56,568 nucleotides of DNA, from assembly GCA_031396605.1 (NCBI GenBank), contig JANNLB010000155.1:1-56568 (forward strand). Direction: 5' to 3'. Numbering within the stretch: the stretch's first letter is position 1; each line of letters starts with the position of its first letter. The stretch comes from Geobacter sp. (GTDB taxonomy: Bacteria; Desulfobacterota; Desulfuromonadia; Geobacterales; Pseudopelobacteraceae). The notes beneath the pieces were generated by a model. The model searched no databases, had not been told where the DNA came from, and was given only the letters and a program-made list of their open reading frames with translations. This document shows, in pieces, positions 595 to 18,284 of the stretch. Made by a program: the position numbers and the translations under genes.

Positions 595-1332
595 ATGAAC
601 AATACGGAGCGCAAAGGCTGTGCTGCAGTATCCTGGCTCAAGAATGCCAAGAACATCCGGAAGCCATACGAAGACCGCTACCGACTGTTGAGCAAAGATA
701 TACCGTTGGTTGGCAAGTCGGGACGTGGCGAACTGTTTGCCGTGCTGGATGGTATCGGCGGGGCACCTCGGGGCATGCAGGCAGCTCAGGCGGTTGCCGA
801 TTGCCTTTTGGATTTCTACCGCAAACCGGAAGAAATTCCGGCTGACAACAATGGGTTGAATCAGCTTCTGCTTCAAGCAAACCAGGCAATTAATGACTGG
901 GGTTGTGTGGATGGTACGGACAGTCCACTGGGAGGGGCCGCTGGAACAATCGTCTGGATTCAAGAGCAAAGGCTGACGCTATTCCATGCCGGAGATACTG
1001 CCGGGATACTCATTCGCCAGAATCAGGCGCCACAAGTTCTTACCAGCGCACATGAATTAGATGGCGGAATTTCCCGCTACTTCGGTCTGGGACGAAGACT
1101 AGAAATCGAGGTGAAGTCGGAGCGACTGGAAGAGGGCGATTTGATCCTGCTCGTGTCGGACGGTGTCACAAAAGCATTCAGTACTACAGAGGCAGCTAAT
1201 CTCGTGCTGGAGATTTACAACAAGACCGGAGATATTGGCTTTGCAGCACAGGAATTGGTGACCCGGTCGCGCAGCAAGAAGTCGGTTGATGATATTACCG
1301 TGATGCTGATTGAGGTAGAAGAAGATGAGTGA
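595..1332 (+). CDS. PP2C-family Ser/Thr phosphatase-like protein
   Basis: 245 aa with PP2C/SpoIIE-type motifs FAVLDGIGGAPRG, LILLVSDGVTKAF and DDITVMLIEV. Its stop overlaps the next start (ATGAGTGA), suggesting translational coupling. Confidence 0.8.
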   Translation: MNNTERKGCAAVSWLKNAKNIRKPYEDRYRLLSKDIPLVGKSGRGELFAVLDGIGGAPRGMQAAQAVADCLLDFYRKPEEIPADNNGLNQLLLQANQAINDWGCVDGTDSPLGGAAGTIVWIQEQRLTLFHAGDTAGILIRQNQAPQVLTSAHELDGGISRYFGLGRRLEIEVKSERLEEGDLILLVSDGVTKAFSTTEAANLVLEIYNKTGDIGFAAQELVTRSRSKKSVDDITVMLIEVEEDE

Positions 1333-2797
1333 ATGGTTGCAGCAAGAGGTATGTCGTAGAATCGAACTCTATTGCATTGATATGGGCTATGCTGAAGCAC
1401 CTGGCGAGAATTCATTTATCCCAAAAGATGCTGTAACTACATTCGGAATTGCCAGTCACATAGCAAATGTTGTGGGCTGTACTCACTATGTTGTCGTAGC
1501 ACCGCGCGGTCATATCTACGGATACTTTTTCAAGCAGTTCGGTTGCAAGGTTATGGAAGTGTATGTTTCGCCCCATTCGGGTGACGTTCAGGTTATAGAT
1601 GACCTATCCAGCATAAGAAAGCGAAGGGTATTCATCATAGAAGATAATGTGGTGAGTGAAGCGGCACTCCCGTCGGTTGTAAATTCACTGTTGCCGTATG
1701 AACCGGCTGAGATATGCCTGTTTGTTGGTGACACAAACGGTGAAAGACACCTGGATAACGTTCCACCGGCAATTTCACAGGTGTTCCTTACTGATCAGAT
1801 TTACAATTTTATCAGTCCGGAACAGCTCGAAAAAGATTTTACCGCTTTTTTTGCATATCTTGTTCCTGCTGCTATTGCGAACACAAACGCAGAAGCCACG
1901 ATGCAACCGAAATGGGCCCAAACTTCATACAATATTGGGAAAACGCTGAAGCCCTTTTTCAAAAGACTTAAACAAGTATGGGAGAGTCGTGCGGAGATAG
2001 ATCATAAACGCTTTCGGAATAAGCCGGGTACTATTCGTGTTGGTCAGAACAACATTGCTGACAATACCAGCTTCCTTTATTTCATGATGAATCTCTTTAA
2101 GCCTGGTTGCATGAGCCATATCTCAGTACGGCCCGGTTTGGCCTTGCCTTTGTCACTAATGCTTCTCCTTAAATATTCCAGGGGTATTCAACAGGCTGAA
2201 AACAGAAAGAAAGCTCTATTTATATCGTTAACGCACCCGATAGAAATTGCTGAAAACGTGATGGCTCACTGCCTGCGAAGAAGCGTCAAGCCGATGTTAA
2301 ATGGCAAAATCCTCGATAGAGACTGGCCATATTTGACCCGTGCGGCTGGTGAAGTGTATGACCTCTGCATAGATTTTTGGAAAGAAGATGTTTTTTTCGA
2401 GACGGATTTTCTGAAGCATATTCTTCAGTCCTCAGAATGGCCTTACGGGCTTGTCGTGATTAATGATTCGACTGGCCGGTTGGAGGAGGACAGCTACGGC
2501 ACAATTAATCCGTTGCAGCAATTGAAAAGCATCCGATTGCTAGCAACAGCACTGAATATTCCTGTCATTGTTATAAATTCAAGCCTCCAAAAGGACGTTA
2601 TGGACACAGATGTTTTTGATCACATTGCACAACTTAGCGATGACGTGGACAGATACCAGTTGTTCATATCTAAATCAAATAAAAGTGCATACGGTAAATT
2701 GACCTTTGTTATGTCCCGGAAATGCAACATTCTTGAGGATGCCTTGTCTAACTTTACTCAGACAAAGCCGGCTAATTACAATTCATGGAGCGAATAG
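1325..2797 (+). CDS. Fusion protein: N-terminal phosphoribosyltransferase (PRTase)-like domain plus C-terminal RecA/DnaB-C/KaiC-like domain lacking a Walker A lysine
   Basis: 490 aa. PRTase-like segments are VVVAPRGHIYGYFFKQFG and the PRPP-loop-like RRVFIIEDNVVSEAAL. The C-terminal half has DnaB-C/RecA-like strands (ALFISLTHPIEIAENV, GLVVINDSTGRLEE, LNIPVIVINSSLQKD). The position expected for a P-loop reads VRPGLALPLSL. Domain calls come from motif recognition only. Confidence 0.5.
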   Translation: MSEWLQQEVCRRIELYCIDMGYAEAPGENSFIPKDAVTTFGIASHIANVVGCTHYVVVAPRGHIYGYFFKQFGCKVMEVYVSPHSGDVQVIDDLSSIRKRRVFIIEDNVVSEAALPSVVNSLLPYEPAEICLFVGDTNGERHLDNVPPAISQVFLTDQIYNFISPEQLEKDFTAFFAYLVPAAIANTNAEATMQPKWAQTSYNIGKTLKPFFKRLKQVWESRAEIDHKRFRNKPGTIRVGQNNIADNTSFLYFMMNLFKPGCMSHISVRPGLALPLSLMLLLKYSRGIQQAENRKKALFISLTHPIEIAENVMAHCLRRSVKPMLNGKILDRDWPYLTRAAGEVYDLCIDFWKEDVFFETDFLKHILQSSEWPYGLVVINDSTGRLEEDSYGTINPLQQLKSIRLLATALNIPVIVINSSLQKDVMDTDVFDHIAQLSDDVDRYQLFISKSNKSAYGKLTFVMSRKCNILEDALSNFTQTKPANYNSWSE

Positions 2798-3058
2798 ATG
2801 AAGATTTTCTGGATAGGACTTGGAATTATGGGTGTGATTCACATCAGTAGGGGTGTGTGCTCACTACGGTAACGTTCCAAAGGTTGTAACAATTGTTATC
2901 AATTGCGCCATTCCGGTCATAATAGCACTGGCGATAGCATTAGTTAATCACATGAGAAGGCAACTTGAGCTAATGACTGAAGATGATGGGGAATGATGTA
3001 GGCACCAGTGGAATAAATGACCTGCAAGGATGTTTCTGATGATTTTATGGAGTAATTG

Positions 3059-3547
3059 ATGTTTAAAGACGATTTTGAGATTGATTTTGTTGATGGGGAC
3101 CTGCTGGATTTTGTAGGTGATGCTATTGTGGTCAATACAAATATACGGCTGAATTTGAATTACACATTGGGAAAAGCCATTTTGGGAAAAGCTGGACAAC
3201 CCCTTGAAATTGAACTTCAAGATATTCTTCATGATCGCTTTTCTGAAAAGGATTTACCATTAGGGACGGCGATGAGCACGAATGCATACGGCATGTCGGA
3301 TCATGTCCGAAAATTAATTTTTGTGAGTTGGTGGAACCAGGACAACGAATATACGGTCAACCATATATTCAAGGTGCATGCTGCCGCTATTCGAGAGGCT
3401 GATGCATTGGGATTGCGCACTATTGCATTTCCCTTGATGGGAAGAGGTCATCGAGTGAAATACTCGATTATAGCGGAAGGTATTGCCAAGACGATCAATG
3501 AGCTGAACAAGCTTGAAAGCGGTTTTCGGTTGAGAAAGTTGCTTTAA
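3059..3547 (+). CDS. Macro domain protein (ADP-ribose binding/processing); the 3' end probably continues to 3615 after a -1 shift
   Basis: Macro motifs are GDAIVVNTN, GKAILGKAG and TIAFPLMGRG. A GGAG lies 6 nt upstream of the ATG at 3059. The annotated frame stops at 3547. The -1 frame from the T-run at 3523-3526 encodes FSVEKVALITLHKEDVENVRRLVEAKLILG, which looks like a typical Macro terminal strand plus helix. Confidence 0.8.
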   Translation: MFKDDFEIDFVDGDLLDFVGDAIVVNTNIRLNLNYTLGKAILGKAGQPLEIELQDILHDRFSEKDLPLGTAMSTNAYGMSDHVRKLIFVSWWNQDNEYTVNHIFKVHAAAIREADALGLRTIAFPLMGRGHRVKYSIIAEGIAKTINELNKLESGFRLRKLL

Positions 3548-3609
3548 TTACACTTCATAAAGAAGACGTAGAAAATGTAAGGCGATTGGTCGAGGCTAAA
3601 TTAATACTG

Positions 3610-3649
3610 GGGTGAAATGTCAGAAATCGCCGCTTCTGTCGTTATGAAT
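3610..3649 (+). repeat. Conserved 40-nt motif, copy 1 (GGGTGAAATGTCAGAAATC...TGTCGTTATGAAT)
   Basis: 36 of 40 nt are identical to 10520-10559. In both copies it begins at the stop codon of a Macro-type reading frame. Confidence 0.7.
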
Positions 3650-3671
3650 AGATGAATCCAATTCCCTCGGT

Positions 3672-4115
3672 ATGGAGGCACAAAATACGATGAATGTTAT
3701 TCAACACCACCTCAACAACATCTCTGAAAATAGCTCTTCTTCCCCATCACCACTGACAAATGAAGGCATGTTTGTGGTAGCCATAGTACTTGAGATTCTG
3801 ATGGCTCATAATCGTTATGTTGACCAGCCATACACACGGGAAGACATTAACGATACGATTGAATCCTTACCAAGGTTTCAAATAAAATGGCTCCTCAGCA
3901 TTATTAAGTCACTCAAGACGAAAAAGCATTCACGGGTAAGGCAAAACCTTCTCGCAATTACTCTGCAGAAAACCCCGGAACCGGTTCTTACAATTGATTT
4001 GTCGAACTACCTCCGCATCAACTATTTCAATACGTTCATAAAATTGTTTGTCGGGCTCACTGATTGTAAGTTGCAGGAAGTTGGCAAATATCGATATTTG
4101 GTGACATCGTGGTGA
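3672..4115 (+). CDS. Hypothetical protein (ORFan)
   Basis: 147-aa ORF in operon orientation. An alternative start is ATG 3690, which has a GGAGG upstream. I recognise no motif. Confidence 0.5.
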   Translation: MEAQNTMNVIQHHLNNISENSSSSPSPLTNEGMFVVAIVLEILMAHNRYVDQPYTREDINDTIESLPRFQIKWLLSIIKSLKTKKHSRVRQNLLAITLQKTPEPVLTIDLSNYLRINYFNTFIKLFVGLTDCKLQEVGKYRYLVTSW

Positions 4116-4178
4116 CGTCGTGTAATTTTCGCAAACGAATGGCTGAAGTCTAACCGTAGTGAAATTTGTGAGGTGTGT

Positions 4179-4829
4179 ATGGGATGCTCATTTTATTATA
4201 AAGGTTGCCTTAAGGATCATAAAGCGCAGGAAGAGGTCATCGAGTTGGCAGCTCAACTTGCTGGAGATCATGGATTCATGGTTCTCCCGGATAGTAACAA
4301 AAAATATCTGGCGAGGATCGGATTAGACTCGAACCTTCTGGAAGATGGCAGTTATACCCAGAGTTCAGGAATCACGGACCCGTCATGTGGGTTTGATTTC
4401 TATGGAATAAGTTTCTATGGAAATCCGCTTCAGAATGATCATAGTTCTGTGCCGGATCAATTAATATTTCATCGTTGTCAGCTAGGCTCTCTCGCTTATA
4501 TGGAAAATAGAGAGGGAATGATAGTTTCATTAGCCTTGAAACAACTTCAGCAATACTCGCCCCCAGAATATGACGATACTATGGTTTATGACGGCCCTCT
4601 CTTGCATGTCGCTAGCGGCGGTGAATTTAGATGTGGAGGAGGAGCAAAGTTTGCATTGCTTCTTAATTTGATAAAATTACGCTGGATGCCTGATCTTGAT
4701 ATGTTTGATGATTATGGCAATTGCGACAGCATGGAAAGAATTATCCATCACCATCGGCTGGCTGGCAAATTTTCAAAAAAATCGATGTCATTTGAGGAGT
4801 GCTGGGAAATGGTTGAAGGTTTATTGTAA
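4179..4829 (+). CDS. Hypothetical protein (ORFan, Cys-rich N-terminus)
   Basis: The ORF track gives 4173-4829. ATG 4179 has a GAGG 6 nt upstream. I recognise no family. Confidence 0.55.
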   Translation: MGCSFYYKGCLKDHKAQEEVIELAAQLAGDHGFMVLPDSNKKYLARIGLDSNLLEDGSYTQSSGITDPSCGFDFYGISFYGNPLQNDHSSVPDQLIFHRCQLGSLAYMENREGMIVSLALKQLQQYSPPEYDDTMVYDGPLLHVASGGEFRCGGGAKFALLLNLIKLRWMPDLDMFDDYGNCDSMERIIHHHRLAGKFSKKSMSFEECWEMVEGLL

Positions 4830-4901
4830 TTTCCTCTGTCGAACATTTCCTCTTTTATCGTTAAAGATTATGAGATTTTAGGCTGGACCGAGTAGGAGAG
4901 T

Positions 4902-6071
4902 ATGCTTGTGAAGATAAGCGTGATGATATTCCTCCTCTTTTCTATGTACAGACATTCCCATGCATATGAAATCCGGAGTCCAATCGAAAAGGCCGAGGCT
5001 GGATCGGCTACGGTTGAGATGCTTGCGGATGCGATAAACGGTAATTTCGACAACAAGAATTTCAACTTTGACATAAACACAGGGGTTGATCTGACTTATT
5101 GGAATCCTGGTTTCGATGAAGATAAAGTTGTAAAATTCACCACCGAAGGGATGAAAACATATCACGTTGGTGCAAATTTTACCTACAACGACAAATCCAT
5201 GCTGGCCTTGCAATATGAAAGGCCTTTTGACGGGACAAAAAACCAGTTAGAGATCTTCAAGGCCAATATGAAACAGAATTCCGGCATTGAACGGTTCACC
5301 GGAGAGGTAAAACTCGACCCTCTCGCCGATCTCCTGTTTCCGGACAGTCTGCTGCTGAGAAAAATACTTTCCGTTGAATACAGATACTCAAGGGAACGCT
5401 TCTTTGGTGAGGTTACCGCTCAAAGAGAAATTGCGTACATTCCGAAAGATGCGATCGTTGACCACGTCAAGAGAACGATAACAGGAAGCAAATCCGTTTC
5501 TGCCGGGGAAAAACTGGATTTCAGGACTGAATTTATAAACCAGGAAATATCCATCCCTTTGGTGAGCCTGGATATGAAGAAAACCGTAAACTATAACGGG
5601 AGGGTGGAGAAGATAAGTTTCTTCCGGGAGGACTTCAGGGTGGGTTACTTCAATTTCCAGTGGAGCAGACCCTCCCATGGTACTGACGACACCCTCGCCG
5701 GCAAGCCGATCATCAGTGACACTACCTTCAAGTCACAAGGATATTATCTTTCCTTTGAGACTCAGGACCCCGGTTCTCCGGGATTTAACCTTGATTGGCT
5801 GGTACGAATTGGGCTAGGCGGCGAGGTGGACAATGCCTTTCACTATAATAAATCTGATGTGTCTTTTGTCGGCATGAGTATAAATACTTGGTACAATCAC
5901 TACTTCAACAGCAGGAATGGAGGTCCTGCAGCAACCTTCGGATTCCTCTTCGATTGGAGGCGCATGAATGTGGATGAGAAAACAACTGAAGCATCAACCA
6001 GCACTGTTCGGATTATGAATGAGCAGGAGAAACTCTATAAGGTCTACCTGAACCTCATCTATCGATTTTGA
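4902..6071 (+). CDS. Putative outer-membrane beta-barrel protein
   Basis: It has an N-terminal signal peptide (MLVKISVMIFLLFSMYRHSHA), an alternating aromatic/hydrophilic pattern, and a C-terminal LNLIYRF ending in Phe, which is the OMP signature. An AGGAG RBS is present. Confidence 0.6.
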   Translation: MLVKISVMIFLLFSMYRHSHAYEIRSPIEKAEAGSATVEMLADAINGNFDNKNFNFDINTGVDLTYWNPGFDEDKVVKFTTEGMKTYHVGANFTYNDKSMLALQYERPFDGTKNQLEIFKANMKQNSGIERFTGEVKLDPLADLLFPDSLLLRKILSVEYRYSRERFFGEVTAQREIAYIPKDAIVDHVKRTITGSKSVSAGEKLDFRTEFINQEISIPLVSLDMKKTVNYNGRVEKISFFREDFRVGYFNFQWSRPSHGTDDTLAGKPIISDTTFKSQGYYLSFETQDPGSPGFNLDWLVRIGLGGEVDNAFHYNKSDVSFVGMSINTWYNHYFNSRNGGPAATFGFLFDWRRMNVDEKTTEASTSTVRIMNEQEKLYKVYLNLIYRF

Positions 6072-6204
6072 GGAGAGTTTTCCGTTATTGAGTTATATCA
6101 GCATCTGCGCTGAGAAATAAATATCAGTTCCTGTTTGTCAGGATTTTCGCTTTCCATCGTTATTAGATGGCAGGCGAAACAAACGATAAAACAGGAGGGC
6201 GCAG

Positions 6205-7128
6205 ATGTCACACAATAGTCAGATTGTCAGGGAGATTGAAGAGTTCAAGGTTTTTGTAAAAACGGCCGGATCAGTCCCGGAAGCCGAGTTCGACATTGAA
6301 TTTCATAGTAGGCTCTGGAATATCGAAAAACTTGCCCGCCGGGAACCAGAAAATCGCAAGTCGTTGATGGCTGACTTCCTGGCATCAACGACATCAGAAT
6401 TCGAGGTCGGGCTCATGAGCTGCCACAGCAGAACCAAGCCTTTGGGGTATGCCGGCGACCATATCCTTATCGACATGATTTACCAGAAGACTGTTGCCAA
6501 TACAGAGGCGGGCAGGAGGATGGATGAATTCTTCCATCGCCAGAAAGCCCCCGCTGCAGTTCGCAACCGCAAGAGCTTTTTCATCGAAACATTCGTTGAA
6601 CTGTGCCAGAAAAAAGCTTCTCCATCGATTTTTGATATCGCCTGCGGTCCTTGCAGGGATGTGGCTGAGGCTCTTGAGGAAGCTGGCGATACGGCGGAAG
6701 GCGCCTCATTCCATTGCGTCGATATGGACCCGCGTGCGATTGCGTATGCCCAGTCGGTTGTAGATCCTTGCAGAGCTACCCAAATCTGCTGGCAGGTAAC
6801 TGATGTGTTCCGTCTTCGCACCAGGAAAAAACATGATCTTGCCTGGTCAGCCGGACTGTTCGATTATCTCAATGACCGGTTGGCTGCTGCTCTGCTCCGC
6901 AAGATGTGGGATGCGACAGTAGAAGGCGGAGAAGTCATCGTCGGCAATTTTCACACATCCAATCCAGACCGTGCCTGGATGGAGTGGTGCGGCGATTGGC
7001 ACCTTATTCACCGGGATGAGGAGGACATGCTCTATCTTTGTCACCGGGCTGGAGTACCGACGGATTCGATCCGATTCCATTACGAATTGACTGGCATAAA
7101 CATGTTTCTGAGGATATCGAAGGATTAA
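6205..7128 (+). CDS. Class I SAM-dependent methyltransferase with an extra N-terminal domain
   Basis: Motif I is IFDIACGPCRDV, followed by the acidic loop HCVDMD and post-I/II strands. An AGGAGG RBS is present. Confidence 0.8.
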   Translation: MSHNSQIVREIEEFKVFVKTAGSVPEAEFDIEFHSRLWNIEKLARREPENRKSLMADFLASTTSEFEVGLMSCHSRTKPLGYAGDHILIDMIYQKTVANTEAGRRMDEFFHRQKAPAAVRNRKSFFIETFVELCQKKASPSIFDIACGPCRDVAEALEEAGDTAEGASFHCVDMDPRAIAYAQSVVDPCRATQICWQVTDVFRLRTRKKHDLAWSAGLFDYLNDRLAAALLRKMWDATVEGGEVIVGNFHTSNPDRAWMEWCGDWHLIHRDEEDMLYLCHRAGVPTDSIRFHYELTGINMFLRISKD

Positions 7129-7157
7129 GTGACTTCGAAAAGGAGAGAAGTGGATTC

Positions 7158-7580
7158 ATGCTGAGAATTCTACTGATTGAAGATGATAACGGACGTGTCA
7201 GGATAATAAGGGAATGGTTGCCTGAGGATGTGCGTTTGGTGCACGCTGGCAGCGCCGGTCGCGCCATTGGCATTCTACAGCGAGACCGTGATGCCTACGC
7301 CGGAATTATGCTCGATCATGACCTGCAAGGTCAGGTCGCAACCGATATGGACTTCTTTCTTTCCGGCAGCAATGTGGTGAAGACAATCATTGCAAATGTC
7401 CCTTCTGACACGCCTGTTCTGGTTCACTCAATGAATCCTGAAGAAGCACCGAAGATGGTTATGACACTGACAAAATCAGGATTTAGCGTTACCCGCCACC
7501 CCATGAGTGTGTTGACAAAAGAATGTCTTGATGAGTGGCTGCAGGAAGTCCGTGAATGCTGGGACAGCCGTGACGAATGA
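7158..7580 (+). CDS. Stand-alone divergent receiver (CheY-like) domain protein, copy 1
   Basis: The start is ATG 7158, after AGGAGA. REC landmarks are LLIEDD, MLDHDL (acceptor Asp position) and VLVHS. It is a paralogue of 11172-11591. From memory it resembles the family described as the cyclic-phosphate processing receiver (cREC); this needs an HMM check. Confidence 0.7.
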   Translation: MLRILLIEDDNGRVRIIREWLPEDVRLVHAGSAGRAIGILQRDRDAYAGIMLDHDLQGQVATDMDFFLSGSNVVKTIIANVPSDTPVLVHSMNPEEAPKMVMTLTKSGFSVTRHPMSVLTKECLDEWLQEVRECWDSRDE

Positions 7581-7787
7581 GGTGTTCAGAGTGACGCCCT
7601 GGCAAATTCGGATTTTGTGTTTTCGTGCATTGCTCATTATGACAACCTTAATCTTATTGAGCGGCCACGTAACTGAAGTTGCTGGGCATCGGACAAAAAC
7701 GTAGGTTTATTCAAGTCGCAAATGTGCTCATCGAAGGATTGTGCCGTTGTAATCGCAAATAGTAATGGTCACGAGGAGTGGTTAATT

Positions 7788-8573
7788 ATGGATGAGCATT
7801 CCGATACAAGCCGATTAAACAAACAACGGCTTGTTATGACCCTATGCGGATTCTTTGTTTCATCGACCACAGTAATTGATTGGTACTTGAATGCGCCTCT
7901 CCGTATTTTGCCACTCAGTGAGGAAGAATATTTACGTTACCCGTATCTGTATTTAATTGTAAAACCCATACAAGTTATTGCTACGCCCGATCTAATTGCT
8001 TACTGGTGGATGGTCGTGCTGGTTGCGGGGTGGATGTTTATCCTTGGATTCATATCAGCAAAGATAGTTATTACCATTTATCAATCCAGATTTATCGCGA
8101 CCCAGAATGTCTATCTGAAAACCATTGCCATGGCAGGTCTGATAATTGGTCTTAGTGCCGGATATTTTCTGCTAATTGCTGCATACATGCTCCCATTAGT
8201 CTGGAAAATCTATATGTCCATTGTAACCGCCATGCTCACGTTTATTGGTACCTATTTGGTGTTTCGCTCTCCCTATCATTTGTATCTTTGGTGGAAAACA
8301 GAAAAGGTTTTACACCTGCTGTCTGCGCCGGCAAAGGTATTTACGGAACTCGGATACGGGAATTCGACTTTCCTCAGTACTGAAATCGAGCTGCCAGACG
8401 GGCGGGAGTATCGCCAAGCCTGTTTCGTCAGCATGAGGGTTGAAGGAGTGTATCTCCGTGTCTGGATGGGAACTCGTGTCTTTATTCTTTCAAGTCGAGA
8501 TGGGCTAAAAATACAGAGAAAAGACCGAAAAGCATTCAAAATATTGGTTGGCATTCATGGCCACGCGCAATAA
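7788..8573 (+). CDS. Multi-pass membrane protein with a soluble C-terminal domain
   Basis: The ORF track gives 7722-8573. ATG 7788 has a GAGGAG upstream. There are 4-6 hydrophobic helices (e.g. WWMVVLVAGWMFILGFISAKIVITI, LIIGLSAGYFLLIAAYMLPLVW). Confidence 0.6.
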   Translation: MDEHSDTSRLNKQRLVMTLCGFFVSSTTVIDWYLNAPLRILPLSEEEYLRYPYLYLIVKPIQVIATPDLIAYWWMVVLVAGWMFILGFISAKIVITIYQSRFIATQNVYLKTIAMAGLIIGLSAGYFLLIAAYMLPLVWKIYMSIVTAMLTFIGTYLVFRSPYHLYLWWKTEKVLHLLSAPAKVFTELGYGNSTFLSTEIELPDGREYRQACFVSMRVEGVYLRVWMGTRVFILSSRDGLKIQRKDRKAFKILVGIHGHAQ

Positions 8574-10299
8574 TGGCCGGGGTTTGTTTATGCGCACGGA
8601 TCTTAAACACATATTACGACCAGAGAATGGGCCTTCGCTCCGGACAAAGCTCTGGTGGCTCAGCTGGAATAATTACCAGTCACCACTTCCGACAAAGGGT
8701 TTCCTGGCTGGCGGTGCGGTTGCAAGCTTGGTACTTTCTGAAGCCTGGGGTGGAAATTTTCCGATCAACGATCTGGATGTATTTTTAACCGATTCAGAAA
8801 AAACAGATCCTCCCGCAACACCAGTACGCATAACCGGGATCGCTCTTGATAACCAGGTAGAAGACGATGAATACCAGGGGAGGTACAATGTTCGCAACAG
8901 GGGCTATCAGGTAGTCAACTCGGACCGCATTGATTTGATTAATACGGTGTCTGTTCGGATGCTGGAAGATGAACTGCCCGTTCTCGCCGCATACAGGTTC
9001 ATTCTCCAGGGTTTTGATCTCAACTGTTGCCAGATCGGTATTGACCTGGAGAGCGATCAACTGATATGGACACCGGAATTTGAAGAATTTGTCGCAACCG
9101 GCCAGTTGAAGGTTACCCATCTTGCAACCCCTTACCACACAGCTATCAGGCTGGCTAAGAAACAAGGCGAGCTTAATTGTTACTGCGACTTGAAAACAGA
9201 GCTCTCTCTTCTGACTACATATGTCGATATGGTGTCGGCTCTCGGTCGCAGCAACAGAAATAATGTAATGTATTCCCGATTTTTCGGGAAAAAGTATCAC
9301 GAAACGTATCTCTGTCATCAAAATTCACTTGAACCCTATTGCATTGTTTTTCCTGGAACCAATCAACTCCTGCTGCCAGGCACTGGGATTCCGACGCCTG
9401 ATTACTACAGCATGGAATTAAATGTTCCATCTGCTTATCAGGAATTGAGGCCGTATTTCTATATATACGGTGGCCTGCAACTCAGCAGTGTCAGTATGCT
9501 CCAAATGTTTGACAAAATCTGCCGCCCAACCACCCGATCCGTTACTCGGCGCAAATTTGTAACTGCTATTAAGTTAGGAGGACTGGCTGCAATCTGCGCT
9601 ATTCAAAACAGTGGCTTTCTGGATTGCAATCATCATCACAAGAACTTTAAAAAGCTTGAACAATTTGCTAGAGAGCATTTTGGCGTTATCTGCCTGTTTA
9701 ATCGACTTGGCTTGAATTTTTCAGAGCAGTTGCAGGCGATTCGCACCATCGGATGTTCTGTCAAAAAGCACGGATTGTTCGTCATCGGGCTGCTGGAAGA
9801 CAGTAATAACGTGATACTGCGGGAAGCAACCGAGTTATCTGAGGAGTTGATAGAGCACGTTGTCAGTGATTTCAGAAGAAGTGTCTCAGCCACACAACTG
9901 GTGTCGCCTGTAAATTTGTCCGGTTTCCCCCGAAAACACCTGGCAATTGTTATTGAGCTTGTCAATGCCCAGCAGTTAGAAGAGGAAGGCATAAAACAAC
10001 ACCATTGTGTAGGGGGGTACATAGATGCGATCCAATCCGGAAAATGCCGGATATTTCACCTGGAGTACCTTGGAGAATCGACAACTTTACAGATATTACG
10101 GAGCGGCAAATGTGGAGAGCACCGGGCACGCTTTAACAGATTACCGCCTCCGGAGCATGTCACTTTAGCTGCCGAGCTGTCTGACTATATCCATATGCTG
10201 AATTCAGACGTGGAAGCTGATTATGGGCAGGCTTTGCTGGATTCCATGCCCTATCATGGGGGTGATATTAATGACATTGTAAATCAGATTGAAGCCTGA
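8548..10299 (+). CDS. Large protein with an N-terminal nucleotidyltransferase-fold-like region and a C-terminal PcfJ-like domain
   Basis: The N-terminus has FLAGGAVASLV...INDLDVFL (a GG...DxD pattern) and FDLNCCQIG. The C-terminus has LEEEGIKQHHCVGGYIDAIQSGKCRIFHL, which is typical of PcfJ-like proteins. The start is uncertain: 8548 TTG, 8557 ATG or 8590 ATG. Confidence 0.5.
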   Translation: MAFMATRNNGRGLFMRTDLKHILRPENGPSLRTKLWWLSWNNYQSPLPTKGFLAGGAVASLVLSEAWGGNFPINDLDVFLTDSEKTDPPATPVRITGIALDNQVEDDEYQGRYNVRNRGYQVVNSDRIDLINTVSVRMLEDELPVLAAYRFILQGFDLNCCQIGIDLESDQLIWTPEFEEFVATGQLKVTHLATPYHTAIRLAKKQGELNCYCDLKTELSLLTTYVDMVSALGRSNRNNVMYSRFFGKKYHETYLCHQNSLEPYCIVFPGTNQLLLPGTGIPTPDYYSMELNVPSAYQELRPYFYIYGGLQLSSVSMLQMFDKICRPTTRSVTRRKFVTAIKLGGLAAICAIQNSGFLDCNHHHKNFKKLEQFAREHFGVICLFNRLGLNFSEQLQAIRTIGCSVKKHGLFVIGLLEDSNNVILREATELSEELIEHVVSDFRRSVSATQLVSPVNLSGFPRKHLAIVIELVNAQQLEEEGIKQHHCVGGYIDAIQSGKCRIFHLEYLGESTTLQILRSGKCGEHRARFNRLPPPEHVTLAAELSDYIHMLNSDVEADYGQALLDSMPYHGGDINDIVNQIEA

Positions 10300-10525
10300 A
10301 AAGGCTTTTCTGTGTCATGATTTCACCATCGGTGTACCGCTCTTCGGGTCTGACACCGGCGGGCTCAGCGCCGAGGACTCCCGCATTGCCATCTGCGAAG
10401 CCATGAAATCGCACTTTAAGAACAACCGGGAATTGCTCATCAGTCAGATATTGATCGTCAACAAGAAACCGGATGTCTGCAACACAGTGAAGTTGATTCT
10501 GGGACGTCATTTTGTATTTGGGTGA
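10283..10525 (+). pseudogene. Remnant encoding only the C-terminal half of a second Macro domain
   Basis: The translation DFTIGVPLFGSDTGGLSAEDSRIAICEAM...ISQILIVNKKPDVCNTVKLIL aligns by eye with TIAFPLMGRGHRVKYSIIAEGIAKTI...KVALITLHKEDVENV of the 3059-3615 Macro gene. The frame opens only at 10283, directly after a stop. Third codon positions are GC-rich in this frame. Confidence 0.5.
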
Positions 10526-10559
10526 AATGTCAGAAATCACTTCTTGTGTCGTTATGAAT
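10520..10559 (+). repeat. Conserved 40-nt motif, copy 2
   Basis: 36 of 40 nt are identical to 3610-3649, and it again starts at the stop codon (GGG TGA) of the Macro-type frame. Confidence 0.7.
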
Positions 10560-10665
10560 CAGAGTAGTCAATTCTGACAACATTGAGGCGGGCCAGATAA
10601 AAGTGACGATCAACATGAATTTTGAACAGGTGAGTATAAAGTATAAGTAAATTAGGGGGTGAATC

Positions 10666-11091
10666 ATGAAGTTAAGAGTACCAATGCTTGAATCAGTTTG
10701 TTATGTAGCCGAGAATGTTCCAAAGCGATGCAGAGACCTCTTTCATATCGAACTGGATTTTTCGGTAGAAAGCATTGAACACCTTGAAGGGATCATTGAA
10801 TCTTTTCCTCGTGGTGATGAACCAACAATACTGGAAAAATTGAACGAACCACTGGTAGCCATAGGGTGTTATGTCGGTGAAGTAATTCGCAGGAATTTCG
10901 GCGGTGAGTGGCAAGACACTTCAAGTGTTAATGGTTTTCCAATTGGCATCAAGCTGGGAAGTACATATCTGAACCCTATCGACAAGGTTATAAGGCGCTA
11001 CAAAGAAGGGAGTGAACACAATTTGACCGATTATGTGAAGTTCTCTTTATTGATGAAGGTAACTTTCGATAAAAATAGTATGACATTGTAG
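10666..11091 (+). CDS. Hypothetical protein
   Basis: 141-aa ORF with a GGGGGTG RBS. The pattern FSVESIEHLEGII...AIGCYVGEVIRRNFGGEW is reminiscent of small immunity/DUF-type proteins, but I cannot assign a family. Confidence 0.5.
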   Translation: MKLRVPMLESVCYVAENVPKRCRDLFHIELDFSVESIEHLEGIIESFPRGDEPTILEKLNEPLVAIGCYVGEVIRRNFGGEWQDTSSVNGFPIGIKLGSTYLNPIDKVIRRYKEGSEHNLTDYVKFSLLMKVTFDKNSMTL

Positions 11092-11171
11092 AAATCAAGA
11101 ATGTCATAAATCATCATATATGTCGTTTGAATAAGCTGGAAGGTTCAACTTCGTGAAAAGAAAGGAACCTC

Positions 11172-11591
11172 ATGATTCGAATTCTGCTTATCGAAGACGA
11201 CAATGGACGTGTCAGAACAATCAGGGAATGGTTGCCTGAAGATGTTCGTCTGGTACACGCCGGCAGCGCCGGTCGCGCAATCGGTATTCTCCAGAGAGAC
11301 CGTAATGCCTATGCCGGGATCATGTTGGATCATGACCTGCAAGGTCAGGTCGCAACCGATATGGACTTCTTTCTTTCCGGCAGCAATGTGATGAGGACAA
11401 TTATTGCAAATGTCCCTTCCGACACACCTGTTCTGGTTCACTCCATGATTCCCGCAGATGCTCCGAAAATGATTATGGCACTGACAAAATCCGGTTTCAG
11501 CGTTACACGCCTCCCAATGTGTGTTTTGACGAATGAGAACTTTAGCCAGTGGCTGGAAGAGGTGAGAGAAGTCTGGGCGGATCGGGAATGA
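11172..11591 (+). CDS. Stand-alone divergent receiver (CheY-like) domain protein, copy 2
   Basis: 139 aa and highly similar to 7158-7580, including a 63-nt block of perfect nucleotide identity (11328-11390 equals 7313-7375). Confidence 0.7.
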   Translation: MIRILLIEDDNGRVRTIREWLPEDVRLVHAGSAGRAIGILQRDRNAYAGIMLDHDLQGQVATDMDFFLSGSNVMRTIIANVPSDTPVLVHSMIPADAPKMIMALTKSGFSVTRLPMCVLTNENFSQWLEEVREVWADRE

Positions 11592-11609
11592 CGGAGGAGA
11601 TGGGTTGAG

Positions 11610-12551
11610 ATGAAAATAATCAGTGCTTCGCGACGAACAGATATCCCACAGTTCTACTCAGCCTGGTTCAAGGAGCGTCGCAAATCTGGCTTCGCTGAAT
11701 ACCGTACAGTTTATGGCGGTGGTAAAGACGGCAAGTTTAGGGTTTCCTTGAAAAATGAGGACGTTATCGGGTACCTGTTTTGGACAAAATTTGCCGGGCC
11801 GTTTCATGAGCAGTTGGAGGCCTTGCGGTCAGAAGGAATGCCGTATGTATTCCAGTATACCCTTACAGGATATGGCAAAGAGATCCAGCCTGGAATACCG
11901 GAACGTTCAGCAGCTATTGATGACTTCCTGCGGGTTTCTGTAGATCTACCCGCAGCAACAGCAATCCAGTGGCGATACGATCCGATTCTGGTGTCGCCGC
12001 GCTACAACATTGACTGGCACCGAAACAATTTTGAACAGATCGCGGAACAACTACAAGGATCTACTCGTGTGGTGAACGTTAGCTTTGTCGAACCGTATCT
12101 GAAAGCGATAACAAAGGCACCGGATTGGCGCGATATTCGGTGGCGAAAGCCAGATCCGATTCGCCACAAAACAGCCCTCAGCAAATATCCTGAAATCCGT
12201 GCCATCGGTGCTGAGGAGGATGTATTACTGTCTGACCTGGCTGAAATTGCCAGACAGCGAGGTATAGAACTGCGGGTCTGCTGTAATCGTGAACATGATG
12301 GACGGTTTCCGACAGCAGCGTGTTGCGGTTTGGAGCTTTTCCAAGCATACGGCACTGAATTGAATAAACGTGTTGCCGATCTTGCACCTGGCCCCTCACG
12401 TCCAGGTTGTCGGTGCCTGAAGACTGTTGATATCGGTATGGATACTACGTGCCCCGGAGGATGTTTCTATTGCTATGTCACAACCTCACTGGAACGCGCC
12501 CGATTGAATTATGAGAAACATGATCCGGCAGCCTCAATGATGAGATCGTGA
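11610..12551 (+). CDS. DUF1848 family protein (C-terminal Cys cluster, probable Fe-S)
   Basis: The N-terminus is IISASRRTDIPQFYSAWF and the C-terminus is CRCLKTVDIGMDTTCPGGCFYCY, as I remember for DUF1848. It starts 18 nt after the receiver gene. Confidence 0.7.
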   Translation: MKIISASRRTDIPQFYSAWFKERRKSGFAEYRTVYGGGKDGKFRVSLKNEDVIGYLFWTKFAGPFHEQLEALRSEGMPYVFQYTLTGYGKEIQPGIPERSAAIDDFLRVSVDLPAATAIQWRYDPILVSPRYNIDWHRNNFEQIAEQLQGSTRVVNVSFVEPYLKAITKAPDWRDIRWRKPDPIRHKTALSKYPEIRAIGAEEDVLLSDLAEIARQRGIELRVCCNREHDGRFPTAACCGLELFQAYGTELNKRVADLAPGPSRPGCRCLKTVDIGMDTTCPGGCFYCYVTTSLERARLNYEKHDPAASMMRS

Positions 12552-12621: not shown

Positions 12622-13065
12622 TTACGCTGTTGGCTCGACAACAGCCGTTTTTGATGCAGCAGGAGCCTTGACAGCGATCCCCTTTTTCACTTTTCCCTTT
12701 TCCTCTGCCTCGCCAAGCGGATTCGTGAACCCGCGCGGCGGTCTGTAATCCCACCCCATCTCCTTGCACATTTCAGCGTTCAGGAGATTGATTTCCTCTT
12801 TGATTTTCTGACTACGCTCGATGAATTCCTGAGCCTTTTCGAACTTGATGTTCTTATTCCGCCCCATGTTCATCCGCAACTGGTAGAGGACATTATCGAG
12901 GGTGTTGAGCATACCGATGAAGTCGCTCTGGTCCATGGTCTTCCGGGATATGACGTCTATGTCGTCCCGATTCACCTTTTCCAGCTTCCGTTCCTGCCAC
13001 GTCTTACCTCCTGAAGGTTTATTGCCTCCCTGTCCATCATTGGCTTGCTTACTCTTGTCAGTCAT
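12622..13065 (-). CDS. Hypothetical protein at the distal end of the transfer operon
   Basis: ATG 13065 is preceded by AGGAAAGGAG. The protein is charged and probably coiled-coil. No family recognised. Confidence 0.5.
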   Translation of the reverse strand: MTDKSKQANDGQGGNKPSGGKTWQERKLEKVNRDDIDVISRKTMDQSDFIGMLNTLDNVLYQLRMNMGRNKNIKFEKAQEFIERSQKIKEEINLLNAEMCKEMGWDYRPPRGFTNPLGEAEEKGKVKKGIAVKAPAASKTAVVEPTA

Positions 13066-13082
13066 GTTCACTCCTTTCCTGG

Positions 13083-14570
13083 TTAACTTCTTCCGGTAGC
13101 CCTGCGGGCCACTCCTGTTCCGAATCTGCCGGACAGTTCCGAGAAGACGGTATCGTCGAATCTCTTCATGGTGATGACCAGCATCTCTATCGCGTTCATT
13201 TCATTTACGACGTTGGCATATCCCTGTTGCGCCGTGGTCAGCAGGACCCGCGTCCTGTTTGTAAGCTGCTCGACGTTCTTCATACCGTCGAACAGCAGGG
13301 CGAGCTGGCAGCTGTTGGGGTTGGCACCCGCCTTGTTGTCCTTGTTCTGCGACTGGATCTGGGCTGAGAGGTTTTGCAGTTGCGCCGCCTCCTGCAGGAG
13401 ATCGAGAAGCATGTAGTAGGCGAATGCCCTGGCGGTTACCGCGGAAAGCTTGCCGATTACCTCTCCCTCTGTATTGGTGGCGATGGCGGTTTTCAGCACG
13501 AGACTGATGGAGAGCGGCGTTGCGTTAAGAAATGGCACGTCGTTGGTTGCGTCGAGGGTCTGCTTCGCTTTCATCTTTGTCGATATGGCCTGCATGCGGG
13601 TTGAGACGTATTGCATGATATTCGCGTTGGCGTCCGTGATGGCGCTGCATACTCCGGCTGAATTCTTTCCCTGCGCCGAACCGTCCAGGAATGTGTCGAA
13701 ATCGGTATTCTTGTCGCACGGTGGTATGAAGCTGGCGACATAGGTGCTGTTCGTCGTGGTGGGTGATTGCACAACCACGTCGCCGATGAACCCCCGGATG
13801 AGCTTGACATAGTTGGCGTTCATTCCCTTCTTGGCGGCCAGGTTGTCGAGTACCGAGCCTCCGCCGAAAATATCGGTGATGTCGCTGGGACAGCCGGCCG
13901 TGCTCCCCTGGGAGGCCTGGGCCACGATGTTGCCGACCGGCGGCGTGTTCCCCATGGCGGAATTCATCACCGAAGTCAGGTTCGTTTTTGAGGTCTGATA
14001 CATGTCATTTATGCCGCTGGATACCATGAAGTCATTCATCGAATTGCTCATTTCATTCTTCACGCTGTTGCTCATGATCGGCGAGAACGGTTCGCTTGCC
14101 ACTGCCACGAGAGCCTTGGCCGCCTTGCAGTCGTTAAGTTGTATGTTGTTCAGGCGGTCCACGATAGCCTCCAGGGATTTGATTGTATCCGCCACCTGGG
14201 GGGCCAGCGTCTTCATCGCGATGTCGAAGGCCGCCGCCGGCGCCGCCGAAAGGATGCGCTGCAGCTTCTGGACAAGGTAATCAACATTCATGAAGCTGAA
14301 CCCTCCCAAGAAAGCGTCGATCCCGCCGCAGCCGGACTTGATCGACGGCAGGGTCACGGTAACGGGATAGTCGGTGCCATTGGGCCAGCGGGCGGAAAAG
14401 CTGCCGCCGGTGTAGTAACCCCGCTTCGCCCCCTCGTAGTAGCTTGGTGATGTTGCGGTCTTCTGGGTCATCCAGTCATCGACCCAGCCGCTCCAGGAAA
14501 GAGCGGGCATCGTGGCGATCGCCAGGGCAAGCGCCGACGCAATGGTTTTCTTTGCTGTTTTTCTTTTCAT
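13083..14570 (-). CDS. traH: F-type conjugal transfer protein TraH
   Basis: It has a signal peptide after the ATG at 14570 (GGAAAGGAGGTG RBS). The block TLPSIKSGCGGIDAFLGGFSFMN...CKAAKALV matches the conserved TraH core. Confidence 0.85.
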   Translation of the reverse strand: MKRKTAKKTIASALALAIATMPALSWSGWVDDWMTQKTATSPSYYEGAKRGYYTGGSFSARWPNGTDYPVTVTLPSIKSGCGGIDAFLGGFSFMNVDYLVQKLQRILSAAPAAAFDIAMKTLAPQVADTIKSLEAIVDRLNNIQLNDCKAAKALVAVASEPFSPIMSNSVKNEMSNSMNDFMVSSGINDMYQTSKTNLTSVMNSAMGNTPPVGNIVAQASQGSTAGCPSDITDIFGGGSVLDNLAAKKGMNANYVKLIRGFIGDVVVQSPTTTNSTYVASFIPPCDKNTDFDTFLDGSAQGKNSAGVCSAITDANANIMQYVSTRMQAISTKMKAKQTLDATNDVPFLNATPLSISLVLKTAIATNTEGEVIGKLSAVTARAFAYYMLLDLLQEAAQLQNLSAQIQSQNKDNKAGANPNSCQLALLFDGMKNVEQLTNRTRVLLTTAQQGYANVVNEMNAIEMLVITMKRFDDTVFSELSGRFGTGVARRATGRS

Positions 14571-14605
14571 GGTAGTTTCACCTCCTTTCCGCTGGTGATG
14601 GAACT

Positions 14606-15445
14606 TCACTGCTGGTCGAGGTTCGACGGCCTCTTCCTGACATCGAAGCCGCCTCCCTTCTGGAAGTCGTACAGGCTGAAATCCTCCGGGGTGATCTCGC
14701 CTTTCAGGAGGCGCACCGCCCGGTATGTCTTGTCCTCGATCTCCTCGGCAGTTATCAGTCCGCTTGAGACAGGGAAGGAGTTCTGGTTACCCTTCTGGAT
14801 CAGGATCATGGCCGGCGTTATTTCGATACCGAACCTTCCGGCAAGGCCTGAATTCTCCTCGATGTTGATCCTCTTCACTTGCCAGCCGGTGGCATTGGTG
14901 AACCAGTCGATGATTGGCTGCTGCTGCTGGCAGTAGCCGCAGTCATTCTTGTAGAAATAGATCAGGGCGAACTCCTCCCTGTTGTCACGAAGCTTCCTGG
15001 TTTTTTCCTCCTGTATCTGGCCGACCCGGCTGAGATTGCCGGGGGTGGCAATCGGATAATCCTTGGCGGTGGTCAGCTCGGGGTATTTCTGCCAGACGTA
15101 CTGGGCGACGTTGGTGAACGCCAGGGCCTTTTTCCGGGCTATCTCCTGGACCTCGTAGTACTCCTTGACGTTCTCCTCGGACGGGTTCTGTACCGCCTTC
15201 CTCTTCAAGCCTTCGGCGAACTTCTCGAAGTCATCCGGGTGCATGTTCCAGATCTCGTCATAGGAGTAGTCCGAAAGCGCCGGCGCCTTCTTCGACTTTG
15301 TCTTTTTCCGCTCCGCCCCCTTTTCCTCCTTCTTGTCAGGCTCCTTCTGATACCACCACCATCCCTTACCCGAATCGGTGTAGTAACCGGCGCCAGCCGT
15401 AGCGGCAAAGGAGAGGAGAAGCAGGGCTGCGATTATATGACGCAC
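14606..15445 (-). CDS. traF: F-type conjugal transfer protein TraF (thioredoxin-fold)
   Basis: A GTG start at 15445 follows GGAGGAGG and gives the signal peptide MRHIIAALLLLSFAATAGA. GKGWWWYQKEP and a thioredoxin-like C-terminal half with CGYC match TraF. Confidence 0.8.
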   Translation of the reverse strand: MRHIIAALLLLSFAATAGAGYYTDSGKGWWWYQKEPDKKEEKGAERKKTKSKKAPALSDYSYDEIWNMHPDDFEKFAEGLKRKAVQNPSEENVKEYYEVQEIARKKALAFTNVAQYVWQKYPELTTAKDYPIATPGNLSRVGQIQEEKTRKLRDNREEFALIYFYKNDCGYCQQQQPIIDWFTNATGWQVKRINIEENSGLAGRFGIEITPAMILIQKGNQNSFPVSSGLITAEEIEDKTYRAVRLLKGEITPEDFSLYDFQKGGGFDVRKRPSNLDQQ

Positions 15446-16899: not shown

Positions 16900-18284
16900 T
16901 GAGTGTCCGTCTCCTCAGTGGAACGGCAGGAATCGAACGAGGAGACGACGGCCGGCGCTTCCGGGAAGATTATTTTCGTCTTGGAGGGAAGCGCATCGAG
17001 TGTGGTTCCCTTGACCCTTCCCGAATAGGTGAGCATGTAAAACTCCCTGGGTTGGAGGCCCAAAATATCCTGGACCTTGAGGATGTCCTGCTCCACCTCC
17101 CGGGTCGTTACCTGGTTCGATCCAAAGATCCCCGTCAGGACGTTTCGCACCCCGAAATGCTTGACGACGTATTCGCTCGTCTCCGCGTCGGAACAGCGCA
17201 TGAAGATCTTCGTATTGGTGTTGTCGAGGATGCTCTTGCCGAACTCCTCACCCACGACAGCGTAGACCTGGTTTACCGACTGGGCAAAGGCTGTCACCAT
17301 TACGTCCGCTGATCCCGCCTTGGCGAAAAGGTCCTCTATTCCCTGGTAAAACAGGCTCTGCGCTTCATCGATGAAGATGGAGAGCGGGGGATCGACCCTC
17401 TGTTTGTTGGAATGATAGACCCTGCCGATGAAGGACTGGATCATAGAGAGGATAACCTTGCCGAGGGTTGCGGAAGCCTCCCGGGTAATCATCGTACCGG
17501 TGTGGACCACGAGGATGACCCGTTTTCCTTCCTCCAGGTTTTTGATGAAGCGGTTGGAGTCGGCCTGGCCGATGATTTTGCCGATATTGCCGGAGGAGAG
17601 CTCCATGAGGGCCGTCCTTAGCGTAGAGGAGACCTTGGCGTAGTACTCCATGGGGGACTTGAGAATATCCTCAAGCATCCCGGCCGTCAGGTCCGCCTCA
17701 TGCGTATTGAGACGGCGCAGCGCGTTCATCGTCTCCTCCAGGGCTTCACGGCGGATGCTTTGCCGGATGGTGTCGATGTTCATTACCGGCAGGCGGCCTT
17801 CCTCTTTTGCCAGGAGGATGTTGGCGGTGACGACGGCGGTGGTGATCTCCTTGGCGATGTTCCGGTAGAACGGCTCTTTTCCTCCCTGGATGCCGGAGAT
17901 AACATGGCCGACCAGTTCGTCTACCATGAAATAGTAGGCCATCGGGTCAACGACGGACGAGTATTCCGGAAAGATGGGAGTCACGAGCATCAGTTCATCG
18001 AGCCGCCCCGCCTTCCGCACCACATCGAAGATCTTCGTAAATATCTGCTGGTCACCCTTGGGATCGAAGTAAACGACCGAATACCCCTTGTTGATATCCT
18101 GTTCGATCAGGTTTTCGCAGAGCCTCGTCTTGCCGACGCCGGTCGTGCCGAACACGAACATGTGGCGCTTCCGAAAGGAGTCGGGGATGGAGAGCGGAAC
18201 AATTTTGGTCGGGTGCTCCATTTTCACCCCGACCCCAATATGGGTCAGGGGTTCATTTTCCGGACGTTTGCAAAATGGAAACAT
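16896..18284 (-). CDS. Type IV coupling protein-like (TraD/VirD4/FtsK-HerA superfamily) P-loop ATPase without obvious TM segments
   Basis: Walker A is FGTTGVGKTR and Walker B is SIFIDEAQSLF. TAFAQSVNQ...NTKIFMRCSDAETSEYV resembles the T4CP C-terminal region. An alternative start is ATG 18221. Confidence 0.65.
   Translation of the reverse strand: MFPFCKRPENEPLTHIGVGVKMEHPTKIVPLSIPDSFRKRHMFVFGTTGVGKTRLCENLIEQDINKGYSVVYFDPKGDQQIFTKIFDVVRKAGRLDELMLVTPIFPEYSSVVDPMAYYFMVDELVGHVISGIQGGKEPFYRNIAKEITTAVVTANILLAKEEGRLPVMNIDTIRQSIRREALEETMNALRRLNTHEADLTAGMLEDILKSPMEYYAKVSSTLRTALMELSSGNIGKIIGQADSNRFIKNLEEGKRVILVVHTGTMITREASATLGKVILSMIQSFIGRVYHSNKQRVDPPLSIFIDEAQSLFYQGIEDLFAKAGSADVMVTAFAQSVNQVYAVVGEEFGKSILDNTNTKIFMRCSDAETSEYVVKHFGVRNVLTGIFGSNQVTTREVEQDILKVQDILGLQPREFYMLTYSGRVKGTTLDALPSKTKIIFPEAPAVVSSFDSCRSTEETDTQ

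Follow-up and report, generated by a model that had tools for sequence, protein, structure and literature searches.

A DnaB body without motor motifs, fused to a degenerate phosphoribosyltransferase-like domain, on an integrative conjugative element of Geobacter

What may a protein do that joins the body of the helicase DnaB to a phosphoribosyltransferase (PRTase) fold, when the catalytic motifs of both parts are degenerate or gone? The question is raised by an open reading frame (ORF) at positions 1325-2797 on the plus strand of a 56,568-nucleotide stretch of Geobacter sp. DNA (assembly GCA_031396605.1, contig JANNLB010000155.1, positions 1 to 56,568), which is referred to here as the window. 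The ORF is open throughout and its product, P0001, has 490 amino acids. A preliminary description, made from the letters of the DNA, had proposed a PRTase-like domain fused to a RecA/DnaB-C-like domain that lacks a Walker A motif, and every peptide string that it quoted is found in the translation, in the order stated. The parts of P0001 are as follows.

1325-2797, plus strand: P0001, 490 amino acids, composed of a PRTase-like domain, a disordered linker, a DnaB linker helix and a dead DnaB C-terminal domain (ORF reading, homologue searches, alignment)
1325-1864, plus strand: type I PRTase-fold domain, residues 1-180 (PF00156 matches of relatives, PDB profile, AlphaFold2 (AF2), Foldseek)
1622-1669, plus strand: degenerate phosphoribosyl pyrophosphate (PRPP) loop, residues 100-115 (motif table and alignment)
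1931-1987, plus strand: homologue of the DnaB linker helix (LH), residues 203-221 (identity to the genome's own DnaB, family conservation, AF2 helix)
2063-2749, plus strand: RecA-like core of the DnaB C-terminal domain, residues 247-475 (VIA Z 19.6, Foldseek, hhalign)
2126-2158, plus strand: remnant of the Walker A site, residues 268-278 (hhalign columns against the genome's own DnaB, family table)
2315-2371, plus strand: docking/determinant helix (DH), residues 331-349, with the invariant D333-W334 (alignments, PMC9912922)
2447-2476, plus strand: remnant of the Walker B strand, residues 375-384 (hhalign, family table)
2726-2785, plus strand: conserved acidic, Asn-rich C-terminal tail, residues 468-487 (family alignments)

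The C-terminal half of P0001 is related to DnaB at the levels of profile and fold. In the PDB, a profile of 10 C-half sequences finds only DnaB (E 8e-7), with RadB at E 0.7 as the sole exception. Aligned by hhalign with the genome's own DnaB (contig C247, L002:922-2283), the family gives a probability of 97.5% and E 7e-12 over 214 columns. The top Foldseek matches of the full-length model are all DnaB (E 6e-10), and the neighbours of the C-half in the ESM Atlas are also DnaB_C-type clusters. The model of the C-terminal domain, which is of moderate confidence (pLDDT 60-82), superposes on residues 191-441 of Bst DnaB with a VIA-align Z-score of 19.6 and an rmsd of 2.7 A over 213 residues; lower scores are obtained with Twinkle/T7 gp4 (about 16), RadA (15.3), KaiC (14.7) and BcsE (14.6). 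In addition, the structural elements follow the order of DnaB, namely the linker helix, the strand before the P-loop, the H1a strand, the DH helix with its Trp, the Walker B strand and the C-terminal beta-hairpin. The RecA-like fold suggested in the preliminary description is thus retained, with its range of possible parents (DnaB-C, KaiC, RadA) narrowed to DnaB specifically, including the linker helix and the DH helix. KaiC, RadA and a generic RecA were considered as parents and rejected on their lower VIA Z-scores and the lack of profile matches.

Within this DnaB body, the motifs that drive the helicase motor have been lost; Walker A, the catalytic Glu, the Walker B Asp and the sensor Gln are missing from all 13 family members. 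At the Walker A site, the strand preceding the P-loop and the R-P dipeptide are retained, and the G-K-T of DnaB aligns with A-L-P in the hhalign columns. The pattern [AG]xxxxGK[ST] is found in none of 12 family members, so the absence of the P-loop, already noticed in P0001, is a family-wide trait and not a one-off degeneration of this copy. The catalytic Glu of H1a (SLEMS) is replaced by Thr or Ser across the family, and the Walker B Asp by Asn in P0001 and by Asn, His or Tyr among the family members. The sensor Gln of H3 (S-Q-L motif) is lost across the family, the position of the Arg finger is variable and unconserved, and the DNA-binding loop H4 is deleted together with the residues around it, about 25 in all. 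Compared with DnaB (PF03796 with its linker helix), P0001 thereby lacks Walker A and B, the catalytic Glu, the sensor Gln, the conserved Arg finger and the H4 loop, and it also lacks the N-terminal domain PF00772, for which no Pfam match was obtained in P0001 and whose place is occupied by the PRTase fold. Two features are additional in P0001, a 30-residue insert behind the linker helix and a conserved tail beyond the DnaB-like core. This tail comprises an acidic I-L-E-D turn followed by an Asn/Tyr-rich end, is without counterpart in DnaB, and might serve as a short docking motif. The sole GKT of P0001, at residue 205, was examined as a displaced P-loop and rejected; it lies inside the linker helix and is unconserved. 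With these losses, P0001 as read from its sequence cannot be a helicase.

The part of DnaB that has been kept is the LH-DH module. In DnaB, the DH carries a conserved Trp halfway along its length (Trp291 in V. cholerae, Trp294 in E. coli). Together with the LH of the neighbouring protomer, the DH forms the LH-DH module, through which DnaB protomers are joined and on which DciA, DnaC and lambda P all dock (PMC9912922). In P0001, D333-W334-x-x-L337 belongs to the invariant residues of the family, and the D-W pair is invariant in all 13 members, down to 24% overall identity. The DH core is identical to that of the host's own DnaB at 10 of 11 positions (hhalign). The LH at residues 203-221 shares 7 of 18 positions with the LH of the genome's own DnaB and is conserved across the family; AF2 models it as a helix spanning residues 201-226, with pLDDT of only 51-70. 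At the sequence level, P0001 therefore possesses both the linker helix and the docking helix with its Trp. The host genome encodes a DciA loader (contig C272; 80 bits).

The N-terminal third adopts a PRTase layout, as had been proposed, and profile and structure searches assign it to the type I fold with closest resemblance to HGPRT and PRTFDC1. The N-half of P0001 itself stays below every Pfam threshold (no match at E<=10), and only its relatives found by exhaustive phmmer, P0012, P0021 and others, reach PF00156 (Pribosyltran). A 14-sequence N-domain profile matches PRTFDC1/HGPRT in the PDB with E 1.4e-7 (range 1e-7 to 1e-5), centred on the PRPP loop. When residues 1-190 are folded alone by AF2, the model reaches pLDDT 88.9 and leads Foldseek to HGPRT, PRTFDC1 and PyrR at E 3.5e-7. 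For both halves of P0001, matches of this strength greatly exceed what chance would give.

The PRPP loop of this fold is altered. In type I PRTases it consists of four hydrophobic residues and an acidic pair, then x-x-x-[ST]-G-x-[ST], and P0001 departs from this pattern: the acidic pair E106-D107 is kept, and at the turn that binds the 5'-phosphate, Gly is changed to Glu and Thr to Ala. The motif table confirms the S-E-A-A that had been read where S/T-G-x-T is expected. The loop Gly is gone in all four fusion proteins (Glu in three, Ala in one), and the first acidic residue in three of the four. Stand-alone relatives, at 30-40% identity, have a canonical loop. The degeneracy raised in the preliminary description is therefore conserved in the fusions, and not in the stand-alone relatives. 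The pyrophosphate (PPi) loop motif A-P-x-G-x-x-Y is retained in P0001. From these loop replacements and the established relation between structure and function in PRTases, the fold in P0001 has very probably lost the usual mode of binding the 5'-phosphate of PRPP. Considering both halves together, we infer that P0001 can neither hydrolyse nucleoside triphosphates, nor translocate on DNA, nor use PRPP.

P0001 belongs to a small family. A word-indexed search of 5.8 billion proteins returned eight relatives, three of them full-length (55-57% identity) and five short forms of 287-308 amino acids that cover only residues of about 200-490. An exhaustive phmmer search of 1.84 billion representatives gave 95 hits, among which the C-half occurs in just six other clusters (P0002, P0009, P0006, P0010, P0023 and P0036). 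Most of the other hits contain the N-half only, either as stand-alone proteins of about 185 amino acids or as the C-terminal part of proteins of 430-960 amino acids. Four distant relatives of the N-domain, the metagenomic proteins P0021, P0032, P0037 and P0053 (590-960 amino acids), have two PRTase domains behind an N-terminal region of 260-500 residues without Pfam match. A word-indexed search for short N-domain proteins returned one fragment only. All relatives are metagenomic, and one cluster bears the name 'hypoxanthine phosphoribosyltransferase', the only name among them. Intact ORFs are present in 13 clusters, with identities of 24-67%, and an alignment of 10 sequences down to 24% identity contains 17 invariant and 22 nearly invariant columns.

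The gene of the dead-DnaB family is rare. No match was found by tblastn in 72,556 plasmids and 50,697 phages, and no relative by a scan of IMG/VR with the C-domain profile. A real family member is also missing from the genomes searched, which comprised 36 of the host's genus, a further 24 of its order and 400 drawn from the phylum as a whole. Hidden Markov models (HMMs) run over all ORFs of the first 12.6 kb of the window and of the homologous loci L003 and L004 revealed no hidden extra copy of either domain. P0001 matches nothing in Pfam (even at E<=10), NCBIfam, PHROGs or PADLOC. The superfamilies of both domains are already known, and the dead-DnaB family itself is unmodelled in the libraries searched. 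The preliminary description had regarded the architecture as undescribed; in agreement with this, we found no account of a dead DnaB body fused to a degenerate PRTase in Pfam, NCBIfam, PADLOC, PHROGs or full-text literature searches.

In sequence, the family is closest to the DnaB of the host's own family. The family profile detects the DnaB of every relative genome. Against DnaBs of the host's family (Geobacteraceae), the family HMM scores 51-60 bits, with an alignment that reaches back into the Walker A strand. The DnaBs of a further 24 families, of which one belongs to the same order and 23 to other parts of the phylum, score 23-44 bits. Among the 400 genomes of the phylum, only DnaBs of the host's family pass a threshold of 1e-12. 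In a quick maximum-likelihood tree, the dead-DnaB family branches off on the side that holds the DnaBs of the host's family, with a split support of 95. Since the branch leading to the family is extremely long, an origin from a Geobacteraceae DnaB is suggestive and not proven.

In the tree, the short forms P0004-P0008 are nested within the fusion clade, and they keep the first few residues of the fusions. Their probable origin is a deletion of the PRTase domain. The short forms correspond to DnaB minus its N-terminal domain, for which the PRTase fold substitutes in the fusions.

A second truncated DnaB was observed in a related Geobacteraceae metagenome-assembled genome (MAG; locus L054, genome G458, contig C26, 7874-8839, minus strand). 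This 321-amino-acid paralogue, P0110, is without the N-terminal domain and is located beside two HsdM genes, an HsdS gene, a PLD-like gene and an IrrE/HTH pair, in an accessory island of the type I restriction-modification kind. It resembles the P0001 family in its truncation point (linker helix plus C-terminal domain) and its accessory-island location. It differs in that all helicase motifs are intact and the DH Trp is changed to Leu, which makes it a mirror image of the family. P0110 was rejected as an evolutionary intermediate, as its match to the family (E 1.3e-5) is poorer than that of the canonical host DnaB (7e-12).

The P0001 gene is located on a mobile element. Family searches identify the first 23 kb of the window as part of an integrative conjugative element (ICE) with an F-type transfer system. 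The window opens within this element, whose transfer genes and integrase occupy 12622-23054, and host genes (histidine kinases, GlnD, LysS, PurL) follow after its end; there is no tRNA gene in the window. The gene immediately upstream of P0001 and the diagnostic genes of the element are listed below.

595-1332, plus strand: PP2C (Stp1/IreP-like) Ser/Thr phosphatase gene (Pfam PP2C/PP2C_2/SpoIIE; NCBIfam Stp1_PP2C 1.6e-19)
13083-14609, minus strand: TraH (family searches)
14606-15676, minus strand: TraF (family searches)
16896-18284, minus strand: TraD/TraG-type coupling protein (family searches)
21696-23054: tyrosine integrase (family searches)

All genes between positions 1 and 12551 lie on the plus strand, and positions 2001-12000 have a lower G+C content of 0.42-0.48. 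This cargo array reads ClpP, PP2C, the P0001 gene, Macro, three proteins without family match, a methyltransferase, cREC, DUF3977, a PcfJ-like protein, a second cREC and DUF1848. The stop codon of the PP2C gene overlaps the ATG of the P0001 gene by 8 nucleotides (ATGAGTGA). Heading the array is a bona fide ClpP (1-522; 283 bits to NCBIfam PRK00277). It is 88% identical to a ClpP at 1-537 of L004, and a remnant of only 58 residues is left at 5150-5401 of L003; ClpP therefore travels with the element family. The two cREC (PF20274-type) receiver-like genes of the window, at 7038-7580 and 11172-11591, are both 80-86% identical to the single copy in L004. The second of them is followed by DUF1848, which is split into two pieces in L003.

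Two homologous loci can be compared with the window. L003, from the related Geobacteraceae MAG, whose DnaB is 94% identical to that of the host, contains TPR, PP2C, a short form and NUDIX; its PP2C is 83% identical to that of the window and directly precedes the short form. The TPR protein (491 amino acids, 7634-9109), directly upstream of this pair, is without counterpart in the window. L004, a metagenome contig, is syntenic, with CYTH, an 89-amino-acid ORF and NUDIX in place of PP2C. It carries a full-length PRTase::dead-DnaB gene at 1933-3399, followed at 3575-4510 by a short-form paralogue that is 61% identical over the C-half. The lengths given for their longest contigs also hint that P0006 and the divergent P0108 share one 13,565-nucleotide contig. 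Across all three loci, cREC, Macro or Nudix genes are co-located with the family gene, with different immediate neighbours and variable spacing.

Both halves of P0001 can be set beside known proteins. The PRTase-like domain shares with HGPRT, PRTFDC1 and PyrR the core fold, the PPi-loop and the hydrophobic strand that leads into the PRPP loop. It differs from them in lacking a match to the hood subdomain (TM only 0.4-0.47) and in a PRPP loop without Gly and Thr. A weak or altered function in a PRTase fold has precedents in PRTFDC1 and PyrR. PRTase domains in polyvalent proteins, as well as solo PRTases of phages and conjugative elements, have been described as enigmatic and possibly nucleotide-sensing; their defining features are a catalytic DD motif and a conserved Arg after strand 2 that is shared with ComFC (Iyer et al. 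2017, PMC5512222). Similarly, the PRTase domain of P0001 is found on a conjugative element among conflict genes. Its acidic motif reads E-D-N and appears degenerate beside the DD of that group, and the Arg (R61) is present in three fusions only, the stand-alone relatives having Glu there. A fusion to a DnaB body is unmentioned in that work (PMC5512222).

The C-half may be compared with other degenerate modules of the RecA superfamily, the N-domain of BcsE (Z 14.6) and the Rad51 paralogues, in which a RecA-like core has a regulatory or scaffolding use. Their structural match to P0001 is much weaker than that of DnaB, and they are without the LH-DH module. In DnaB, this module is the target of the helicase loaders DciA, DnaC and lambda P (PMC9912922), and P0001 carries one copy of each half of it. 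These loaders are unrelated to P0001 in sequence and fold, and an action of P0001 on DnaB is hypothetical.

We tentatively favour a reading in which P0001 is a non-catalytic protein derived from DnaB, carried as ICE cargo, that may act through contacts of the LH-DH type, either in self-assembly or in docking on the host's DnaB or DciA. This agrees with the preliminary description, which had taken both halves for ligand-binding or scaffolding modules rather than enzymes, as we likewise infer. P0001 may assemble into DnaB-like oligomers, in which the PRTase fold, usually dimeric, would take the place of the dimeric collar. Hetero-oligomers are plausible because full-length and short paralogues stand in tandem in L004, and the hinted P0006/P0108 pair could provide another such case. 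P0001 would dock onto the host DnaB, or onto the loader DciA, whose binding site on DnaB is the LH-DH module, and the element would thereby modulate or exploit helicase loading, for example while the transferred strand becomes established or when the element is in conflict with others. In addition, the PRTase-like head may sense a phosphoribosyl-type ligand, and the upstream PP2C, presumably co-translated with P0001, is a possible partner. A more specific version appears doubtful to us. It holds that a DnaB of the host lineage was captured by a conjugative element and stripped of its whole motor; only the LH-DH module would have been kept, and a dimerising PRTase-like head, possibly able to sense a ligand, would have been received in exchange for the primase-binding collar. 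Such a DnaB mimic would either act on the ring of the host's DnaB, by co-assembly, capping or cracking, or titrate the loader DciA.

Several observations weigh against an action through LH-DH contacts. The DH motif is conserved in DnaBs throughout the phylum, and its retention in P0001 could reflect ancestry and the structural need of the fold, not docking, which is the main weakness of this reading. The LH region has low confidence in the AF2 model, which also places behind the LH a disordered insert of about 30 residues that DnaB does not have. The branch to the family in the quick tree amounts to about 7 substitutions per site. Furthermore, the pairing with PP2C holds in only two of the three loci, and the neighbours Macro, cREC, NUDIX and CYTH point to NAD+/ADP-ribose chemistry, not to replication.

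The same neighbours lead to another explanation, which we consider unlikely though in keeping with the gene content: P0001 may be a ligand sensor, sponge or scaffold in a counter-defence array centred on NAD+/ADP-ribose or nucleotides and unconnected to host replication. Its PRTase pocket would bind a phosphoribosyl signal (an ADP-ribose derivative, PRPP or a nucleotide), and the dead DnaB ring would confer multivalency. The location in a cargo array on one strand, together with Macro, two cREC genes and a methyltransferase, is consistent with this, as are NUDIX and CYTH, which directly adjoin the family genes in the homologous loci. Neighbourhoods of cREC, Macro and Nudix have been described as conflict systems that centre on NAD+/ADP-ribose and process it (PMC7824862), and solo or fused PRTase domains in conflict proteins of conjugative elements and phages have been proposed to produce or sense nucleotides (PMC5512222). 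However, the Glu in place of Gly at the phosphate-binding turn, with the first acid gone in three of the four fusions, speaks against the usual mode of 5'-phosphoribosyl binding. Five short forms dispense with the PRTase domain while their DnaB part is still under selection, and the cargo neighbours vary among the loci, which leaves the functional link to them unproven.

Retention of the LH-DH site, used by phage loaders such as lambda P, would also fit a role of P0001 as a decoy, or guard, in an anti-phage or anti-plasmid module borne by the element. Phage loaders or hijackers that target LH-DH would bind the dead copy, and the binding would be transduced, for example through PP2C. The tight coupling to a signalling-type phosphatase, the weak match of this PP2C to the PADLOC candidate component PDC-M21C (3.8e-6) and the location on a mobile element, where defence genes frequently reside, fit such a role. 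We nevertheless judge it improbable, as a consistent link to an effector (nuclease, NADase or membrane protein) is lacking and PP2C is absent from L004. PADLOC also returns nothing for P0001 or for nine of ten N-domain relatives; the tenth, P0057, weakly matches PRTase_III-A (E 2.6e-4). A reading of P0001 as a retron-type PRTase effector was rejected, as it has only this weak match of one distant relative behind it. Residual enzyme activity of P0001, be it that of a PRTase on an unusual substrate or that of an NTPase through a non-canonical site, is very improbable: the E-D acidic pair and the family's PPi-loop motif are kept in P0001, but the ATPase motifs are all lost in every member, the PRPP-loop Gly is gone in all fusions, and the acidic pair is broken in three of the four. 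We find it hardly credible that the gene is a functionless, decaying relic of a captured DnaB. The loss of the catalytic motifs and the very long branch might suggest decay, but the ORFs are intact, the 17 invariant and 22 nearly invariant columns persist over the 10 sequences, the C-terminal tail is conserved, the tandem paralogues are maintained and the start of P0001 is translationally coupled.

The loading of DnaB in DciA-dependent bacteria, and its takeover by mobile elements, are active questions, and the LH-DH module is the shared target of the known hijackers, DnaC and lambda P. A natural DnaB body in which only LH-DH is kept would be a ready-made probe of this interface. If the DnaB-mimic reading is true, the P0001 family would represent a new class of element-encoded replication modulator and, to our knowledge, the first case in which a mobile element controls helicase loading with a pseudo-enzyme derived from a helicase. 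Even as a mere scaffold in an ADP-ribose/nucleotide conflict array, P0001 would stand for an unannotated family with an undescribed architecture, in which an essential helicase has been recycled as a pseudo-enzyme.

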